A stretch of DNA of 64,000 bases from Oscillospiraceae bacterium (GCA_015064485.1 SVSD01000005.1:42255-106254); one strand, 5' to 3'; positions 55,392 through 62,414 are shown, numbered from the stretch's first letter. Translations and numbers: made by a program. Notes: generated by a model from the sequence alone, not told the origin.

Positions 55392-55670
55392 ATGAAAAAC
55401 TCAAATGAAGAAACTGTGGCAAACATTTTGTCCTCGCAGCAATACCTTCCGGAAATTACAGAAAAAGAAATCGTATGCGGTAAAGATGTTTTTACATCTT
55501 ACGGCTTGAAGATAAAACGAAACGACGGTACTGTTGATGTGTACGAAGATATTTCGCTGACAAGAACAAAAATAACAGAATTATATGATTTGTTTTGCAA
55601 CTACGATATAGATGAGTCACATATCGAAGAGGTGATATGTGATTTTGTTGACAGTCTGCACAGTATATAA
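55392..55670 (+). CDS. Small acidic protein (DUF6514-like)
   Basis: AAAGGAG RBS; YGLKI...EDIS...HIEEVICDF pattern. Confidence 0.7.
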   Translation: MKNSNEETVANILSSQQYLPEITEKEIVCGKDVFTSYGLKIKRNDGTVDVYEDISLTRTKITELYDLFCNYDIDESHIEEVICDFVDSLHSI

Positions 55671-55674
55671 TTCA

Positions 55675-55703
55675 GTCAAAACAGGCCTTTCGTGCATACT
55701 ATA
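55675..55703 (+). promoter_or_regulatory. Possible mother-cell (sigmaK/sigmaE-type) promoter of spoVFA
   Basis: CATACTATA at 55695-55703 matches CATAnnnTA; TCA lies 16 bp upstream; the -35 match is weak. Confidence 0.45.
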
Positions 55704-55733: not shown

Positions 55734-56528
55734 ATGCTATTAAAAAAAATCGCTGTCATAGGCGGCGATGCCCGTTTTGCGGTATGTGCAGAACTTTTTG
55801 CAAAAAAAGGCTGCGAATGTGCGGTTTTCGGACTTGAAAAAGCCGAAAATCTCTTGATGGCAACCAAAAGTGCAACAATATACGATGCTGTTTCGGGTTG
55901 TGATGCTATAATTCTTCCGATACCTGTGTCGAAAGACAATGATCAGGCTTTCTCGCCTCTATCGGATTTTAAAATAAGTTTGACCGATATTTTAGAAAAT
56001 ATAAAGGGCGATCCGATCATTTTTATCGGTCAAAGCAAGGAATCCGTTCAAAATTCACAATTGTCAGAATTTGATATTATAACATATACAGCATCAAAAA
56101 CTTTTGCATTGCTCGGAAGCGTTCCGACTGCCGAATGTGCCATATCAACCGCTACTTATCACAGCCGTAAATGCTGCTGCAATTCAAGATACCTTATCGT
56201 AGGATGCGGTAATGTCGGTAAACGCTTAGGTCTGCTTTCAAAGAATATGGGTGCGGATGTTTTTATATCCGCAAGAAAAAAAGAAGATCTCGCGTGGATA
56301 GAAGCTCACGGAATGATCCCTTTGAAAACATACGATCTTTCGTCAGAAAAGGTTGAATTTGATGTAATATTCAATACAGTCCCCCACATGGTTCTGGGAG
56401 AACAAGTTCTTAAAAATCTTAAAGGTTATCCTTTGATTATAGAACTTGCTTCAAAACCCTACGGGGCGGGTTTTAAACAAAAAAGGGAATATAAAAAAGT
56501 CCGGAGTGCAAAGAAAAAAGATAACTGA
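55734..56528 (+). CDS. spoVFA: Dipicolinate synthase subunit A, 5' fragment (interrupted after codon 243; the rest of the ORF is element-derived read-through)
   Basis: IAVIGGDAR, ILPIP, VPTAE, GCGNVG, VIFNTVP, IIELASKPYG; homology stops there and the conserved GLPGK C-terminus is found at 61711-61857. Confidence 0.92.
   Translation: MLLKKIAVIGGDARFAVCAELFAKKGCECAVFGLEKAENLLMATKSATIYDAVSGCDAIILPIPVSKDNDQAFSPLSDFKISLTDILENIKGDPIIFIGQSKESVQNSQLSEFDIITYTASKTFALLGSVPTAECAISTATYHSRKCCCNSRYLIVGCGNVGKRLGLLSKNMGADVFISARKKEDLAWIEAHGMIPLKTYDLSSEKVEFDVIFNTVPHMVLGEQVLKNLKGYPLIIELASKPYGAGFKQKREYKKVRSAKKKDN
56453..56477 (+). repeat. Left recombination site (attL-like)
   Basis: aaaaccc-tacGGggc-gggttttaaa; imperfect direct repeat of 61701-61725; dyad centred on GG 56463-56464. 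Confidence 0.85.
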
Positions 56529-56615
56529 AAGAAAAATCAAGATAAAAATCCGATAAAATGAAAGAAAAACTCAAAAACTGAGTTTTTTTAAATAATTATT
56601 TTTTTGCTATCCCCT

Positions 56616-56652
56616 AAAAAAGGAGCTGTAAAAAACTACAGCTCCTTCTTTA
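56616..56652. terminator. Intrinsic terminator of the symporter gene (likely bidirectional)
   Basis: aaaaaaggagctgta-aaaaac-tacagctccttcttt. Confidence 0.8.
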
Positions 56653-56659
56653 TTGATTT

Positions 56660-58264
56660 TTATTTACTTCCGAGATTTTGTTTTGCGTCAACTAAAACTT
56701 TTCTGTCATAGCAAGCAAACATTTTATCAACCTCATCCTTGTCGGGCTTTTTAGTAATAAGGCTCACAACAGGAACGAGTATAAGTCCGCCCACCATAGC
56801 AAAAACACCGGAGTAAAGTGAGTTTGTAAATACAAAGCTCAAGAATCCTTCGGGGAAGGAAAGTCCGCAAATATCCTTTACAAGCTGAACGATTTCAACA
56901 CCGGTACCGAAAATGAAGCTCACAACAACTGCGCTCTTTGTAACGCCCTTCCAGTACAAACCGTAAAGGAAAGGAGCAAGGAATGCACCGGCAAGCGCGC
57001 CCCATGATACACCCATCATCTGAGCTATAAAAGTAGCTCCCGGGAAGCTGTCTTTAACTATTGCAATTACAGCAGATACAACCACAAAGAAAAGAACGAA
57101 AAGTCTGAGTATCAAAAGTTTCTGTTTCTCAGAAACCTTCTTATCTCTTTTTTTCATAACAGGAACTATAACATCGAGTGTCAAAGTCGAGCTTGAAGTA
57201 AGGACAAGAGACGAAAGCGTAGACATAGATGCAGCAAGAACAAGTACAATGACCGTTGCGACAATTACAGGATTAAGTTCAGAAAGCATTGCGGGAACAA
57301 TATTATCCTTCAAAAGTTTCGAACCCACTTCGCCGTTTGCCCATATTGCGCTGTTGTTTGCGTAAAGTCTTCCGAAGCCACCGAGAAAATAACAGCCGCC
57401 CGCTACGATTATAGCAAATATCGTAGAAATTACTGTGCCTTTTTTGATTGAATCTTCGCTGTCTATTGAATAGAATTTGCCGACCATCTGAGGAAGTCCC
57501 CATGTGCCGAGAGATGTAAGTATTACAACAAACAATAAAAATACAGGGTTAGGTCCGAGGAATGACGAATAAGCACCCATAAGTCCGCTCGATCCGTTTT
57601 CGATTACGGAAAGACCTCTGTATGCTTCCATAAATCCGCCGTTGTCAACAAGAACCGCCGCAATTACCGCAACTATACCGACAAGCATAATAATGCCCTG
57701 AATAAAATCGTTTATCGCAGTTGCCATATATCCGCCGAATATTACATAAACACCTGTAAGTGCCGCCATAATGATAATAACGAGCCAGTACGGAATATTG
57801 AAAGCTGAATTGAAAAGGCTCGAAAGTCCGTTATATAACGACGCTGTATAAGGAATAAGAAAAAGAAAAACTATAACAGAAGCTATTGTTTTCAAACTGC
57901 CGGACTGATATCTTTTACCAAAAAAGTCAGGCATTGTTTTCGAGCCCAGATGCTGTGTCATAACTCTTGTTCTTCTTCCGAGAATTACCCAGGGAAGAAG
58001 CGATCCGATAAATGCATTTCCAAGACCTATCCAAGTAGATGCAAGACCGAATTCCCATCCGAACTGACCCGCATATCCGACAAAAATAACTGCCGAAAAA
58101 TACGAAGTACCGAAAGCAAAAGCCGTAAGCCAAGGACCTACCGAGCGTCCGCCAAGAACAAATCCGTCAACATTTGTTGAATGTTTTCTGCAGTATAAGC
58201 CAACGCCTATCATAATTGCAAAAAACGCTGTAAGCATTACGATCGTGATAACCGCCTTTACCAT
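56660..58264 (-). CDS. Sodium:solute symporter (SSS/PutP superfamily)
   Basis: FVLGGRSVGPW, YFSAVIFVG, GGYMATAINDFIQG, WGLPQM, AASMSTLSS; about 13 TM segments. Confidence 0.92.
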   Translation of the reverse strand: MVKAVITIVMLTAFFAIMIGVGLYCRKHSTNVDGFVLGGRSVGPWLTAFAFGTSYFSAVIFVGYAGQFGWEFGLASTWIGLGNAFIGSLLPWVILGRRTRVMTQHLGSKTMPDFFGKRYQSGSLKTIASVIVFLFLIPYTASLYNGLSSLFNSAFNIPYWLVIIIMAALTGVYVIFGGYMATAINDFIQGIIMLVGIVAVIAAVLVDNGGFMEAYRGLSVIENGSSGLMGAYSSFLGPNPVFLLFVVILTSLGTWGLPQMVGKFYSIDSEDSIKKGTVISTIFAIIVAGGCYFLGGFGRLYANNSAIWANGEVGSKLLKDNIVPAMLSELNPVIVATVIVLVLAASMSTLSSLVLTSSSTLTLDVIVPVMKKRDKKVSEKQKLLILRLFVLFFVVVSAVIAIVKDSFPGATFIAQMMGVSWGALAGAFLAPFLYGLYWKGVTKSAVVVSFIFGTGVEIVQLVKDICGLSFPEGFLSFVFTNSLYSGVFAMVGGLILVPVVSLITKKPDKDEVDKMFACYDRKVLVDAKQNLGSK

Positions 58265-58314
58265 TTTAATACCTTCTTTCATTTTTTATTTTTTATGGAA
58301 AACGGTAAAATGGT

Positions 58315-58578
58315 AAAAAAATAACCGTCCTCCAACAAAAGAGGACGGAAAAATCCGTGGTACCACCTCAATTTACCGATATGTTACCATATCAGCCTCA
58401 TCAGGCACATTCTATGCCTTATTGCTGTAACGGGCAAACCCGGCGCAGCCTACTCTTCGCATTTCGGTGCGCAGCTCACAAGATGTATTCGCCAAGTTCT
58501 TTCTTACTGTCTCTCACCGCCCGACAGCTCTCTTAAAAGGTAAGAAAAAGGCTACTTCTTCTCGGTCATCGCTTCTAT
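58315..58578 (-). ncRNA. T-box leader, predicted Tyr (UAC) specifier
   Basis: AGAGAG and GGTGAGA stem I motifs; GAA-TAC-A specifier loop (58485-58490); AAATTGAGGTGGTACCACGG T-box (58355-58374); terminator 58325-58348. Confidence 0.88.
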
Positions 58579-58585
58579 ATCGTGT

Positions 58586-58614
58586 ATTCTACTACAAAAA
58601 ACTAACCTTGTCAA
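58586..58614 (-). promoter_or_regulatory. sigmaA promoter of the Tyr T-box/symporter unit
   Basis: TTGACA-17 bp-TAGAAT; the -35 hexamer overlaps the recombinase stop codon. Confidence 0.75.
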
Positions 58615-59510
58615 GTGTTTTTTGCATTTTTATTAAATCTTTTATTTACCTCCGAAAAAGTTATTTCGTCAACAATAGCTTCGTGTGTTCCGCATACTGT
58701 TATCAGATCGTTTTTTGAGTTTTTATATCTCTTTTCAGTCTTATAATTTATCTTTTTTTCAAATCCTTGGGTAATATCTCCTTTGTATGTAGGATTAGTA
58801 AGAATTCTTTTTATCATCACACTGTTCCAGGCATTGCTTTTTCTTCGATTATCCCTTTTCAAAGACGAAGGCGTAGCAATACCTTCTGCCGTAAGCTCTT
58901 TTGCAATCAACAGCATACTTTTTCCTTCAAGAAATCCTCTATAAATTCTTAAGACCGTATCTTTTGTATTTTTATCGGGAACAAGCTTTGATGGGTCCTT
59001 TTCATCTTTTGTGTAACCGTACGGCGCTGAACTTCCTATAAACTTTCCCGCTCTGCGCCTTGAATCAAGTGCACATCGAACCTTTCTGCTTATATCTTTT
59101 GCATACATATCATTGAAAACAGCTCTGAAAGGTATCATATCGTTTCCGCCGGATTCTGACATAGTATCAACGCCGTCATTGACAGCTATATACCGTATGC
59201 CGTTTTCGGGGAAAAACCTTTCTATATACTCCCCTGTTTCGATATAATCTCTGCCAAGGCGGGACATATCTTTTGTTATTATACATAAAAACTTCTTTGA
59301 AAGAGCATCATTAATCATTTTTTCAAATGACGGACGCCTGAAATTTGTGCCGCTGTAACCGTCGTCAACATATTCTGCAATTATTGTAAAATTGTTTTTG
59401 TTACAATAGTTTTCAAGGAACATTCTTTGAGAAGCGATGCTGTCAGACTCCCCTTTTACTCCGTCATCTTTTGAAAGCCTTAGATATATCGCACAAGCCT
59501 CGTTTTCCAT
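58611..59510 (-). CDS. Serine site-specific recombinase (resolvase catalytic domain + recombinase domain), SpoIVCA-like but short
   Basis: IYLRLS catalytic Ser, YVDDGYSGTNF.RP, KDMSRLGRD, APYGY, ILTNPTYKG, HEAIV; ends at 299 aa with no Cys zinc ribbon. Confidence 0.93.
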   Translation of the reverse strand: MENEACAIYLRLSKDDGVKGESDSIASQRMFLENYCNKNNFTIIAEYVDDGYSGTNFRRPSFEKMINDALSKKFLCIITKDMSRLGRDYIETGEYIERFFPENGIRYIAVNDGVDTMSESGGNDMIPFRAVFNDMYAKDISRKVRCALDSRRRAGKFIGSSAPYGYTKDEKDPSKLVPDKNTKDTVLRIYRGFLEGKSMLLIAKELTAEGIATPSSLKRDNRRKSNAWNSVMIKRILTNPTYKGDITQGFEKKINYKTEKRYKNSKNDLITVCGTHEAIVDEITFSEVNKRFNKNAKNT

Positions 59511-59569
59511 ACAAAAAACCTCACGAACACACTGTAAAACAGTATATTCGCAAGGTCTTAATTATTTTA

Positions 59570-59995
59570 CTATTTGTTGTTTTTATTTTCTTTTTTATCT
59601 TTTCGCTTTGCTTTTATTATTTTTATATCAGATTTTGCTTTTTGATAGAGATCTCTTAATATTCCGAGAGTTTTTTCGTCATTCGGAAACAGGAATTTCA
59701 AAAGCCCGAGTGCGATTGCAACAGTCACTATTTTTTCCGGCGAAAACGGGAACCATAAGATCGTAAGATATGCGCCTGATACCGCAACCATCCACTCAAT
59801 GCCAAAATATACGCCGAACGCCATAAAAACATATGCCCAGCCGTTTGTTATAAGCCAGCCTATCCCAAAGCACAGCAAAAACCTCGGATTAAAAATAAGA
59901 AAAAACAGCTTTATGATGAAGTTTTTTATAAATACTGCAGCTTTTGAATGAGATAGCTTCAAAAAAAACTCTTTGATACTTCTTTTGTCTTTCAA
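59570..59995 (-). CDS. Hypothetical membrane protein
   Basis: 141 aa, 2-3 TM segments, Lys-rich tail; has its own sigmaA-like promoter. Confidence 0.75.
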   Translation of the reverse strand: MKDKRSIKEFFLKLSHSKAAVFIKNFIIKLFFLIFNPRFLLCFGIGWLITNGWAYVFMAFGVYFGIEWMVAVSGAYLTILWFPFSPEKIVTVAIALGLLKFLFPNDEKTLGILRDLYQKAKSDIKIIKAKRKDKKENKNNK

Positions 59996-60039
59996 TAATA
60001 TGTCTTCCTTTTAGAAATTACGGCAAAGCCGACGGAAAT

Positions 60040-60068
60040 ATTATACTTTAAAATGCGCAAAATTTCAA
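60040..60068 (-). promoter_or_regulatory. sigmaA-like promoter of the membrane-protein gene
   Basis: TTGAAA-17 bp-TATAAT. Confidence 0.6.
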
Positions 60069-60076
60069 TAGAAAAC

Positions 60077-60111
60077 AAAAAAGTCCTCCCCTTTTCGTAA
60101 ATAAGGGGAGG
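60077..60111 (-). terminator. serS terminator
   Basis: cctcccctt...aaggggagg hairpin with a T-run on the minus strand. Confidence 0.75.
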
Positions 60112-60117
60112 GAAATT

Positions 60118-61404
60118 TTATTTCTTGGGAACTATCTTTTCAGCGCCGCCCATATAAGGACGAAGAGCGACAGGAATATTTACACTTCCGTCAGCATTAA
60201 GATTGTTTTCAAGGAAGGCTATAAGCATTCTGGGAGGAGCGACAACTGTGTTGTTAAGGGTATGAGCAAGATATTTGGAATCTTTTCCGTTTACTCTTAT
60301 CTTAAGTCTTCTTGCCTGTGCATCGCCAAGGTTAGAACAGCTGCCTACTTCAAAATATTTCTGCTGTCTGGGAGACCACGCCTCAACATCAACAGATTTT
60401 ACCTTAAGATCTGCAAGGTCACCCGAGCAACATTCAAGAGTTCTTACCGGAATATCCATCGAACGGAAAAGATCAACGGTATTCTGCCAGAGCTTGTCAA
60501 ACCACATCGGGCTTTCTTCGGGCTTACATACAACGATCATTTCCTGTTTTTCAAACTGATGGATGCGGTATACACCTCGCTCTTCGATACCGTGAGCGCC
60601 CTTTTCCTTGCGGAAACAGGGAGAATAGCTTGTAAGAGTCTGAGGAAGCTGTTCTTCGGGGATTATCTGGTCGATAAACTTACCGATCATAGAGTGTTCG
60701 GAAGTACCTATAAGATAAAGATCCTCTCCTTCGATCTTATACATCATAGCTTCCATTTCCGCAAAGCTCATAACTCCGGTTACAACATCTGAACGGATCA
60801 TAAAAGGAGGTACACAATATGTGAATCCGCGGTCGATCATAAAATCACGAGCATAAGAAATTACCGCAGAATGAAGACGGGCAATATCACCCATAAGATA
60901 ATAAAAGCCGTTGCCTGCAACTCTTCTTGCGCTGTCAAGGTCGATACCGTTAAAGCTTTCCATAATATCTGTGTGATAAGGAATCTCGTAATCGGGAGTT
61001 ACGGGTTCACCGTATCTCTGAACTTCAACATTTTCGCTGTCATCTTTACCGATGGGAACTGTAGGGTCGATGATCTGAGGAATTATCATCATAATCTTTT
61101 TGATTTTTTCCTCGTATTCGGCTTCAAGAGCTTCGCACTCAGCAAGTCTTGCTGCCTGCTGACCGACAATTTTTTTCATTTCTTCAGCTTCGTCTTTTTT
61201 GCCCTGTCCCATAAGAGCACCGATCATCTTGGAGCACTTGTTTCGTTCAGCTCTGAGTCCGTCAGCTTCAAGCTTTACGGCTCTTGAGTTTTTATCGAGC
61301 TCTATTACCTCGTCAACAAGTTCCAGCTTATGATCCTGAAACTTGTTTTTGATATTTTGCTTTACCACATCAGGGTTTTCACGCAAAAACTTAATATCAA
61401 TCAT
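60118..61404 (-). CDS. serS: Seryl-tRNA synthetase
   Basis: MIDIKFLREN N-terminal coiled coil, LIGTSEH, CFRKEKG..RIHQFEKQE, EVGSCSN, HTLNNT..PPR; full length, 428 aa. Confidence 0.97.
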   Translation of the reverse strand: MIDIKFLRENPDVVKQNIKNKFQDHKLELVDEVIELDKNSRAVKLEADGLRAERNKCSKMIGALMGQGKKDEAEEMKKIVGQQAARLAECEALEAEYEEKIKKIMMIIPQIIDPTVPIGKDDSENVEVQRYGEPVTPDYEIPYHTDIMESFNGIDLDSARRVAGNGFYYLMGDIARLHSAVISYARDFMIDRGFTYCVPPFMIRSDVVTGVMSFAEMEAMMYKIEGEDLYLIGTSEHSMIGKFIDQIIPEEQLPQTLTSYSPCFRKEKGAHGIEERGVYRIHQFEKQEMIVVCKPEESPMWFDKLWQNTVDLFRSMDIPVRTLECCSGDLADLKVKSVDVEAWSPRQQKYFEVGSCSNLGDAQARRLKIRVNGKDSKYLAHTLNNTVVAPPRMLIAFLENNLNADGSVNIPVALRPYMGGAEKIVPKK

Positions 61405-61433
61405 TTTTTCTTCCTCCGAAAATAGTTTTTATA

Positions 61434-61648
61434 AAAAAAGAGTTCTTCCCCACAAATATGGGACGAAGAACTCCGTGTTGCCACCCAAATTGCCGTATAT
61501 ACGGCCACTCAAAAAAGCTGTAAGGGGCTTATCCCCAAGACTCATCGTCTTATGCTCCGAAAGCGGAAAAGCAAAAAACCGACAGCCGATCACACCTTCC
61601 TCGGCCTCTCTTTCGAACAGTCAATTGCCGTTTCTTTCATCATAGCTT
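61434..61648 (-). ncRNA. T-box leader of serS, predicted Ser (UCC) specifier
   Basis: AGAGAG/GGTGTGA motifs; TCC at 61565-61567; AATTTGGGTGGCAACACGG (61473-61491), whose UGGC matches the GCCA end of tRNA-Ser; terminator present. Confidence 0.88.
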
Positions 61649-61652
61649 TAAT

Positions 61653-61681
61653 ATTATACACCAAAAAACCACAAAATGCAA
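61653..61681 (-). promoter_or_regulatory. sigmaA promoter of serS
   Basis: TTGCAT-17 bp-TATAAT, lying just inside the right recombination site. Confidence 0.75.
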
Positions 61682-61697
61682 GATAAATTTTCAACAA

Positions 61698-61722
61698 TTT
61701 AAAACCCGGCGGGGTGGATTTT
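61698..61722 (+). repeat. Right recombination site (attR-like)
   Basis: tttaaaaccc-ggcGGggt-ggatttt; dyad centred on GG 61711-61712. Confidence 0.85.
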
Positions 61723-61857
61723 GAGTGTGCAGAAAAAATAGGACTGAAAACTGTTATAGCCTCAGGACTTCCGGGAAAATATACACCGGTAACTGCAGGA
61801 GAAATAGTTTACAGGTGCATATGTGATGCTCTTGAAGAAAGGGGTTTTGAAATATGA
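61711..61857 (+). CDS. spoVFA: Dipicolinate synthase subunit A, 3' fragment (48 codons, no start of its own)
   Basis: GVDFECAEKIGLKTVIASGLPGKYTPVTAGEIVYRCICDALEERGFEI*, matching the conserved SpoVFA C-terminus; the stop overlaps the spoVFB start (ATGA). Confidence 0.9.
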   Translation, partial: GVDFECAEKIGLKTVIASGLPGKYTPVTAGEIVYRCICDALEERGFEI

Positions 61858-62414
61858 TAGGTTTTTGCCTCACAGGCTCGTTTTGCTCATTTGAGAAAAG
61901 TATAAATGTTATGAAAAATCTTTCTCAAAAGTATGAAATCTTACCGATCATGTCGCAGAATGCATATAATTTGGATACAAAATTCGGAAAAGCAGAAGAT
62001 TTCAGAAGCAAAATAAAGGAAATATGTAATAAAGATATAATCCATACCATAACAGAGGCAGAACCGATAGGACCAGCCGTAAAACTCGACTGTCTTGTAG
62101 TCTGTCCGTGTACGGGAAATACATTATCAAAAATAGCCTGCGGCATTACAGATACAAGCGCCACAATGGCAATAAAAGCACAGCTCAGAAACGAAAGACC
62201 GGTGCTTCTTGCAATTGCATCAAACGACGGACTTTCCGGTTCTTCGGTTTCTGTGTCAAAGCTTTTGCAAAGGGAAAATATTTACTTTGTCCCCTTCTCG
62301 CAGGACTCCCCTTTTAAAAAGCCCCGTTCTGTTGTATGCGATTTTGATAAAACCGGAGAAGCTCTGTCCCTTGCCCTTGAAGGCAAACAAATTCAGCCTA
62401 TACTTTACAGTTGA
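61854..62414 (+). CDS. spoVFB: Dipicolinate synthase subunit B
   Basis: GFCLTGSFC, AEPIGP, PCTGNTLSK, NDGL, YFVPFSQD..KKPRS, QIQP. Confidence 0.95.
   Translation: MIGFCLTGSFCSFEKSINVMKNLSQKYEILPIMSQNAYNLDTKFGKAEDFRSKIKEICNKDIIHTITEAEPIGPAVKLDCLVVCPCTGNTLSKIACGITDTSATMAIKAQLRNERPVLLAIASNDGLSGSSVSVSKLLQRENIYFVPFSQDSPFKKPRSVVCDFDKTGEALSLALEGKQIQPILYS

Follow-up and report, generated by a model that had tools for sequence, protein, structure and literature searches.

A serine-recombinase element splits the dipicolinate synthase gene dpaA in gut Oscillospiraceae and is probably excised in spore-forming cells

In a 64-kb stretch of DNA from an Oscillospiraceae bacterium (GCA_015064485.1, SVSD01000005.1:42255-106254; this stretch, at its full length of 64,000 nucleotides, is referred to below as the window), the gene dpaA (spoVFA) for subunit A of dipicolinate synthase is divided into two pieces by a 5,248-bp element that encodes a serine recombinase. 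The split had been reported in a preliminary description of the region made from the sequence alone, and it is confirmed here. Among the readings considered, excision that rebuilds a mother-cell gene is supported as the only one that fits the comparative data; the element is probably domesticated and vertically inherited, and would be removed in the spore-forming cell by its own 299-residue recombinase, rebuilding dpaA for dipicolinate synthesis. The programmed switch on spoVFA that the preliminary description had predicted is supported by the occurrence of the split in seven species, by the constraint on a 3′ piece of 47 codons, and by the conservation of the border sites and of the recombinase.

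The 5′ piece of dpaA (positions 55734-56465 of the window, plus strand) consists of 244 codons from an ATG start to the residues ELASKPYG, and matches the NCBIfam model NF006162 (dipicolinate synthase subunit A) over positions 5-256 of 297 (2.5e-52) as well as the Pfam domain DpaA_N (3.6e-23). Homology resumes 5.2 kb after position 56465 in the 3′ piece (61714-61857, plus strand), with 47 codons and a stop, which matches positions 249-291 of NF006162 (2.9e-11), such that the two pieces combined span positions 5-291; the identity of the gene is also indicated by TIGR02853. Scored singly against NF006162 the pieces reach 178 and 43 bits, for a cut-off of 261, and the cut-off of TIGR02853 is reached in none of 301 genomes of the order, intact dpaA genes included. 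Neither half contains a stop or a frameshift, and the end of the 3′ piece shares an ATGA overlap with the start of an intact dpaB (spoVFB; 61854-62414, plus strand; 186 residues; NF006161, 241 bits, over the cut-off). The intervening element (56466-61713, no strand) has borders that are ambiguous within a shared CGGGG core, found at 56462-56466 and 61710-61714 with a spacing of 5,248 bp. Joining at this core yields an in-frame gene of 244 + 47 = 291 codons that reads ...SKPYG-VDFE... across the junction, as do the intact genes of three congeners (G002, G004 and G009). In all these respects the profile matches, the sequence and the congeners agree with what the preliminary description had proposed. 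The motif AAAACCCNNCGGGG is present in exactly two copies in the window, one at each border, for an expectation of 0.14, and two or more matches were obtained in none of 100 shuffles. The GC content of the element (0.37-0.42) is that of its flanks.

The source genome, G000, is a metagenome bin of 1.6 Mb, estimated as 94% complete, in 28 contigs, the window being part of contig C24. This origin speaks for an artefact of assembly or binning, an explanation that is nevertheless scarcely credible: the dpaA region is internal to a 116-kb contig, the same architecture is found in the assemblies of other species, and contigs assembled from public data cross the borders. The border check drew on 4 of 15 public runs (12 studies; gut or faecal metagenomes), with a depth of about 3-6 in assembled contigs; the left border was crossed by contigs from 4 runs and the right border by contigs from 3, all in the integrated form. 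As independent contigs cross both borders, the assembly is considered sound. No second dpaA was found elsewhere in the 94%-complete genome, and the two doubts voiced in the preliminary description, that another intact spoVFA might exist and that reads might not support the borders, are thereby settled in favour of the split.

Comparison within the genus, all of whose genomes are metagenome bins, extends the observation to further species. Among 41 genomes surveyed (G000 and 40 relatives), ten belong to the genus, and in seven of these (G000, G001, G003, G005, G006, G007 and G008) the split in dpaA falls at one and the same profile position. The inserts measure about 3.0 kb in G003, 4.4 kb in G001, 5.2 to 5.9 kb in G000, G005 and G006, and 18.5 kb in G008, whereas G007 has the two pieces on separate contigs. 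The remaining three (G002, G004 and G009) have an intact dpaA that reads SKPYG-V/I-D at the site. In all seven split species the 3′ piece has the same length, 47 codons, and is free of stops and indels. Its proportions of non-synonymous (pN) and synonymous (pS) differences among split genes (pN 0.276, pS 0.687; 21 pairs) resemble those among intact genes (pN 0.290, pS 0.676; 3 pairs), and the 5′ piece shows pN 0.340 and pS 0.714 among split genes (21 pairs). Because synonymous sites are saturated, neither an open frame nor constraint would have persisted in a dead fragment; both pieces are under purifying selection as judged from these sequences, the 3′ piece to the extent seen in intact genes. 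A survey of related genomes, suggested in the preliminary description, thus bears out its expectation, and the wider spread described further below had gone unnoticed there.

An alternative is that the two pieces are never rejoined and act as two polypeptides, or that the 5′ piece functions alone, with the recombinase kept for another reason. In its favour, both pieces are open, and the 3′ piece of G000 happens to start with GTG. This explanation is nonetheless decidedly improbable. The 3′ piece of G001 starts with GTC, which rules out its translation as a separate gene there; in G000 the frame upstream of the 3′ piece is closed, and the 3′ piece has no preceding ribosome-binding site. As for the 5′ piece alone, the tails obtained by reading through its end diverge completely after four residues encoded by the element half-site. 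This is the pattern of the database relatives: of the 22 nearest relatives of the 5′ piece, nine were fetched (51-86% identity), and all nine are split, with SKPYG followed by the four residues from the element half-site and then by unrelated tails, the joined form being found in none of these nine.

Separate polypeptides would also leave unexplained the conservation, in one register, of four half-sites per species. In the window the left site, attL (56450-56477, no strand), consists of a gene-side half-site, a central GG at 56463-56464 and an element-side half-site, the halves forming an inverted-repeat pair; in attR (61698-61725, no strand) the element-side half-site comes first, followed by the central GG at 61711-61712 and the gene-side half-site. 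All 28 half-sites from the 14 border sites of the seven split species align in a single register around CG|GG, with the consensus nTTYAAAAYCCnnC, in which A at -10 and C at -6 are invariant across the 28 and C at -2 is shared by 27. Both attL and attR have the central GG on the same strand, a direct orientation that predicts deletion of the intervening DNA rather than its inversion. Once joined, the element-side arms of G000 form a perfect inverted repeat of 11 bp. These arms are non-coding and yet keep the inverted repeat, and in G001 and G003 the outer letters have changed on both arms together. In relatives with long forms of the recombinase the crossover codon is the same and the sites carry an extra outer inverted repeat, which is lacking in the sites of the short form; this difference fits the loss of the zinc-ribbon domain described next.

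The recombinase gene (58611-59510, minus strand) encodes 299 residues with a Resolvase domain (Pfam match 9e-24; YLRLS and SRLGRD motifs invariant) and a Recombinase domain (PF07508, 1.8e-20, positions 3-102 of 102), and the nearest solved structure is the catalytic domain of TnpX (1.3e-30). Neither a zinc ribbon (PF13408) nor a coiled coil was matched in the 299 residues. In the large serine recombinases that have been studied, attP-by-attB directionality is imposed by the coiled coil. The present enzyme covers no more than the first half of the CcrB (positions 6-282 of 542), CcrC and XisF models, and in alignment with relatives of about 500 residues it ends where their recombinase domain gives way to the zinc ribbon. 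The missing half has left no trace behind the gene, a T-box leader occupying that place, and no separate open reading frame (ORF) for a zinc ribbon or a coiled coil was found in the G000 genome. The preliminary description had correctly placed a serine recombinase between the two halves of dpaA; its truncation to 299 residues had escaped notice. Assignment to the small serine resolvases and invertases was considered and rejected, the C-terminal half being PF07508 and not a helix-turn-helix domain, and the nearest relatives being large serine recombinases (44-56% identity). The short form is conserved across the split species of the genus. Strong purifying selection on it is indicated by pN 0.283 against pS 0.766 (21 pairs), by a dN/dS of 0.12 in the closest pair and by 115 invariant columns of 304 in the alignment, in which three rows with an ORF extended at the N-terminus were cut back to where the alignment begins.

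A strong terminator-like hairpin (59516-59558, minus strand) ends 5 nt before the ATG of the recombinase gene and holds its GAGG ribosome-binding site in the 3′ arm. The hairpin recurs before the recombinase start in G000 and G005-G008 with stem sequences that differ between species; this structure and its equivalents at loci L024, L025, L026 and L033 have energies of -30 to -45 kcal/mol and precede a T run. The hairpin has the appearance of a terminator and a translational lock in one, which suggests tight silencing of the recombinase outside sporulation.

Sporulation itself appears to be within the capacity of the host. G000 has intact genes for Spo0A and SpoIVA, whose scores of 270 and 690 bits both exceed the cut-off, as well as for SpoVAD and for two SigK/SigE-like sigma factors, and by its genes the organism looks like a spore-former. 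A candidate sigma-K-type promoter precedes dpaA (55672-55703, plus strand), with a -35-like TCAGT, a 17-nt spacer and the -10 element GCATACTATA at 55694-55703. Of the 8 congeners with upstream sequence, 6 have the motif CATAnnnTA some 55 nt ahead of dpaA; it corresponds to the sigma-K -10 consensus in Table 4 of PMC3416734. Because a TATAAT overlaps this -10, assignment to sigma-K is putative; mother-cell expression of dpaA is described in bioRxiv 2022.02.25.481979. Just upstream, an ORF of 92 residues (55392-55670, plus strand) has a borderline match to DUF6514 (23.6 bits, cut-off 23.9).

These data also bear on the possibility that dpaA is dead and the element immobilised by truncation of its recombinase, in a lineage that either does not sporulate or makes dipicolinate by another route. 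The enzyme is indeed truncated relative to relatives of about 500 residues, the genome is small (1.6 Mb), and some clostridia are described as using EtfA instead of DpaAB (bioRxiv 2022.02.25.481979). Such decay is very improbable, in that both pieces, the recombinase and dpaB are open and constrained in seven species despite synonymous saturation, that the constraint on the 3′ piece equals that of intact genes, that the truncation is clean at a domain boundary and common to a whole sub-clade, and that the core sporulation genes are intact together with spoVAD, the gene of the dipicolinate channel.

Under the reading we prefer, excision and reconstitution of the gene, the recombinase would pair attL with attR in the spore-forming cell, most likely the terminal mother cell, cut both sites at the central GG and exchange strands. 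The element would be released as a circle, leaving an in-frame dpaA of 291 codons directly joined to dpaB, and the restored dpaA-dpaB unit, under the upstream sigma-K-type promoter, would allow dipicolinate synthase to be made, with the integrated copy kept by the forespore. Loss of the C-terminal domain may have turned an integrase into an excision enzyme independent of accessory factors and acting on short, nearly symmetric sites, in which case the timing of excision would be set only by expression of the recombinase. Factor-independent excision of this kind would fit the lack of a candidate accessory gene in minimal elements, the sites without outer repeats, and the inheritance of the element through the forespore, where it never has to re-integrate. 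We infer the excision event itself, its confinement to sporulation, the silence of dpaB beforehand and the sufficiency of the short enzyme.

Several points weigh against this scenario. Support for excision is comparative throughout. To our knowledge, every large serine recombinase studied uses the zinc ribbon for site binding and the coiled coil for synapsis, and we know of no enzyme without both that has been shown to recombine. The start codon of the recombinase gene comes directly after a terminator-like hairpin, with the ribosome-binding site enclosed in the hairpin. Upstream regions of the recombinase gene, compared with the sigma-E/sigma-K consensus of PMC3416734, gave no recognisable sporulation-type promoter. 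The genus is known from metagenome bins alone, and its sporulation is judged from genes. The outcome of the junction searches, by contrast, has no bearing on excision: exact probes for the circle junction and for the restored junction retrieved no stretch from metagenome contigs, data which could hardly show either, and the 56465-to-61714 joint was not among the best 15 of 46 joints in the 4 runs, at a depth of about 3-6.

Some of these points would be met if excision rebuilt dpaA with the functions missing from the short enzyme supplied by a host factor or by a full-length recombinase, or if excision were stochastic or reversible. The short enzyme has no domains for outer-site binding and synapsis, its gene shows no sporulation promoter, and G000 does encode two other serine recombinases, both full-length paralogues (552 and 556 residues). 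This alternative is rather unlikely all the same. The paralogues are only 35-37% identical to the short enzyme and lie in other mobile-element contexts; G000 has no orphan ORF for a zinc ribbon or a coiled coil; purifying selection on the short enzyme is strong; and what the short-form sites have lost is precisely the outer repeats that would be recognised by a zinc-ribbon domain. Random excision in vegetative cells would, moreover, remove the only serS gene of the cell (see below). The paralogues themselves lie outside the window, at C24:459-2117 (552 residues) and C5:8000-16000 (556 residues), and by eye the neighbours of the latter resemble those of a plasmid or conjugative element.

How far the association of such recombinases with dpaA extends was assessed by a recombinase scan with one genome per species, which returned 80 loci; at 20 of these, pieces of dpaA or dpaB lie beside the recombinase. 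A tree was built from 78 N-terminal regions (roughly 300 residues from the start; partial matches, at 7 of the 80 loci, were omitted, and the G034 row comprises residues 81-380 of its ORF). It contains one clade of 25 (SH-like approximate likelihood ratio test, SH-aLRT, 98), of which 22 adjoin dpaA pieces, the other three being located on contigs of 1.4, 3.1 and 8.7 kb. The seven short enzymes of the genus group in a single sub-clade (SH-aLRT 99), which suggests a single truncation that preceded speciation, and most of the other members of the clade have 498-539 residues. At locus L039 a 297-residue enzyme is sister to a 500-residue enzyme, which implies an independent truncation. A further short enzyme, of 284 residues (L051), belongs to a 3.7-kb element with two transporter genes and intact dpaA pieces, and has no resolved placement in the tree.

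Split dpaA genes also occur well outside the genus. Of the 31 non-congeners in the 41-genome survey, the one examined (G034, locus L029, from another family of the order) has dpaA interrupted at the same codon, the inserted element being 14.7 kb long and having a 538-residue recombinase beside the 5′ piece; partial dpaA matches occur in G022, G025, G027, G036 and G039. The rest of the L029 element, judged by eye, consists of sugar-utilisation-type genes. In the survey of the order (301 genomes, 263 with a dpaA match), at least four of the matches listed end at profile positions 250-265 (G212, G237, G255 and G064). In Clostridium viride DSM 6836 (L040 6056-11518, L113-L115) dpaA is in three pieces. 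Its first insert, of 2.7 kb, follows profile positions 3-134 and carries genes for a 542-residue serine recombinase and a rubrerythrin; the second, of about 17 kb, follows positions 130-250 and starts with a 505-residue recombinase of the dpaA clade; and the last piece covers positions 244-287. A second genome with a three-piece dpaA (L050 4572-17132) has a first insert with a 509-residue recombinase and a flavodiiron-like protein, and a second with a 539-residue recombinase, sugar-acid enzymes, a GDSL lipase and an AraC regulator. Two contigs of one bin, L042 and L045, each have a dpaA-clade recombinase, a dpaA 3′ piece and dpaB, and may represent two strains binned together.

We tentatively propose, as a possibility short of being probable, that a minimised serine recombinase without zinc ribbon, coiled coil or directionality factor may act on symmetric sites of ~28 bp as a one-way developmental excisionase; that the element, immobile and holding the only serS, would be cut out by the mother cell; and that loss of the C-terminal domain may have occurred more than once within a dpaA-dedicated clade that is widespread in gut Oscillospiraceae-like Clostridia.

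The cargo of the element in the window had been missed in the preliminary description, which had rightly recognised an element with a serine recombinase. All insert genes are on the minus strand, in the transcription order T-box/serS, 141-residue ORF, recombinase and T-box/symporter. A seryl-tRNA synthetase gene, serS (60118-61404, minus strand; 428 residues; TIGR00414, 401 bits, over the cut-off), is preceded by a T-box leader (61456-61652, minus strand; 93.6 bits, gathering score 93) and followed by a terminator-like hairpin (60089-60112, minus strand). The 141-residue ORF (59570-59995, minus strand), a predicted membrane protein without a family match, has a sigma-70-like promoter ahead of it (60040-60068, minus strand; 11 of 12 positions); homologues are found in G005-G008 and are absent from the minimal elements of G001 and G003. 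Downstream of the recombinase gene, a second T-box leader (58338-58578, minus strand; 130.6 bits, gathering score 93) precedes a gene for a sodium:solute symporter of the SSF family (56660-58282, minus strand; 540 residues; Pfam SSF, 1.2e-55). A further terminator-like hairpin (56620-56647, plus strand), some 155 nt inside the element from its left border, separates the dpaA 5′ piece from the end of the symporter gene. The T-box specifiers, read by eye from the cmscan alignment, are tentatively UAC (tyrosine) for the symporter, after a specifier-loop GAA, and UCC (serine) for serS. Rejoining at the RNA level was considered and rejected, Rfam having given the two T-box leaders only and no intron family.

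Judged by its genes, this cargo is host-type and not phage-type. In a PHROGs scan of the element the recombinase was the sole phage-type function, and viral contigs scanned with a full-length relative of the recombinase gave no match by a method that detects only close relatives. Host-type cargo was found in all the elements scanned (G001, G005, G008, L048, L050 and the first element of L040), and includes AdhE, hydrogenase, a tRNA-editing protein, a GlmS-like enzyme, sugar-acid enzymes and rubrerythrin. The minimal element of G003 consists of recombinase and symporter only, and that of G001 of the same genes with a glycoside hydrolase; neither contains a candidate accessory gene, although the absence of a directionality factor is not proven by this, such factors sharing no common sequence family.

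The serS gene of the element is the only copy in the genome, as judged by tblastn and the TIGR00414 model, and the sole serS lies inside the element in five species (G000, G005, G006, G007 and G008). A vegetative cell that lost the element would therefore be expected to die, which would lock the element in. The element type of serS scores 401-407 bits against TIGR00414; it is element-borne in G000 and G005-G008 and is also present in G002. A different, higher-scoring serS (567-572 bits) lies elsewhere in the genomes of G001, G003 and G009. The element-borne SerS proteins of G006 and G007 are 94-95% identical to that of G000, and their recombinases only 63-67%. Another essential gene may be enclosed in an excisable element at locus L048 (7350-11520), where a 4.2-kb dpaA element contains a 509-residue recombinase and a single GlmS-like gene with glutamine amidotransferase and SIS domains.

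Excision of DNA from mother-cell genes is established for sigK, spsM, spoVFB, spoVR, gerE and yabG, and split cotJC and spoIIID have also been noted. With the corresponding sporulation gene-intervening elements (skin, SPbeta, vfbin, vrin, gin and yin) the dpaA element shares an interrupted mother-cell gene, a recombinase of its own, a short core with inverted repeats at the borders and a frame-restoring join. A published split of dpaA or spoVFA was not found in the literature covered, which did not include Abe et al. 2013 and supplementary tables, where one may be listed; within the same scope, the preliminary description, which knew of no such element, still holds. The closest parallel in function is vfbin of Bacillus weihenstephanensis KBAB4 (Abe et al. 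2013, as cited in PMC4191935, PMC10747680 and PMC6957869), which likewise disrupts the operon for dipicolinate synthase, a function exerted late in the mother cell, and is removed during sporulation by an element-encoded recombinase, as is only predicted here. Unlike vfbin, a prophage-like element that splits subunit B in Bacillus, the present element splits subunit A, has host-type cargo and a short recombinase, and occurs in many species. The gin element in gerE of Bacillus cereus ATCC 10987 (PMC5595907) is also not a prophage and has short inverted repeats around a common core, and the interrupted gerE is rebuilt during sporulation; here, by comparison, there is one short recombinase, and minimal elements are without a candidate accessory gene.

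The skin elements of sigK, with the recombinase SpoIVCA (PMC5025042, bioRxiv 2022.02.25.481979), resemble the dpaA element in targeting a mother-cell gene by means of a serine recombinase, and vary from 2.6 to 48 kb with the recombinase as the only shared part. They differ in that the target is a sigma factor and the recombinase full-length (about 500 residues), and in Clostridioides difficile a directionality factor controls the cell type in which skin is excised (same sources). Timed excision of SPbeta, with SprA and SprB, also restores a mother-cell gene, spsM (PMC4191935, PMC5499854), but SPbeta, an active phage, uses an integrase of full length together with a directionality factor. Outside the sporulating bacteria, the fdxN element of cyanobacterial heterocysts, with XisF (PMC4874684), is excised in a terminally differentiated cell and rebuilds a gene needed only there; the recombinase described here matches the NCBIfam XisF model (1.7e-17), although heterocyst elements differ in phylum, target genes and recombinase length. 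With regard to domain loss, an engineered Listeria integrase without its coiled coil recombines attL with attR as it does attP with attB, whereas the wild type does nothing on attL and attR (PMC5499577). That enzyme is artificial, keeps the core of the zinc ribbon and works weakly; the enzyme described here naturally lacks the entire C-terminal domain, and its sites are changed accordingly. The features that appear new are the target gene, the dpaA-dedicated clade of recombinases, the truncated enzyme with simplified sites, and the essential gene in the cargo.

If the proposed excision is real, dpaA would join the short list of sporulation genes rebuilt in this way, over a large and mostly uncultured group of gut anaerobes and not in one strain only. 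Clostridium viride DSM 6836, a cultured type strain, makes the proposal testable. For automated annotation, the genomes concerned read as defective in dpaA, so that spore-formers can be wrongly marked as non-sporulating. The short recombinase is a natural experiment on the purpose of the zinc-ribbon and coiled-coil domains of serine integrases and, if active, would be a compact, factor-independent excision enzyme with short sites. Finally, placing an essential housekeeping gene in a segment destined for programmed excision would be one route by which an element becomes impossible to lose.

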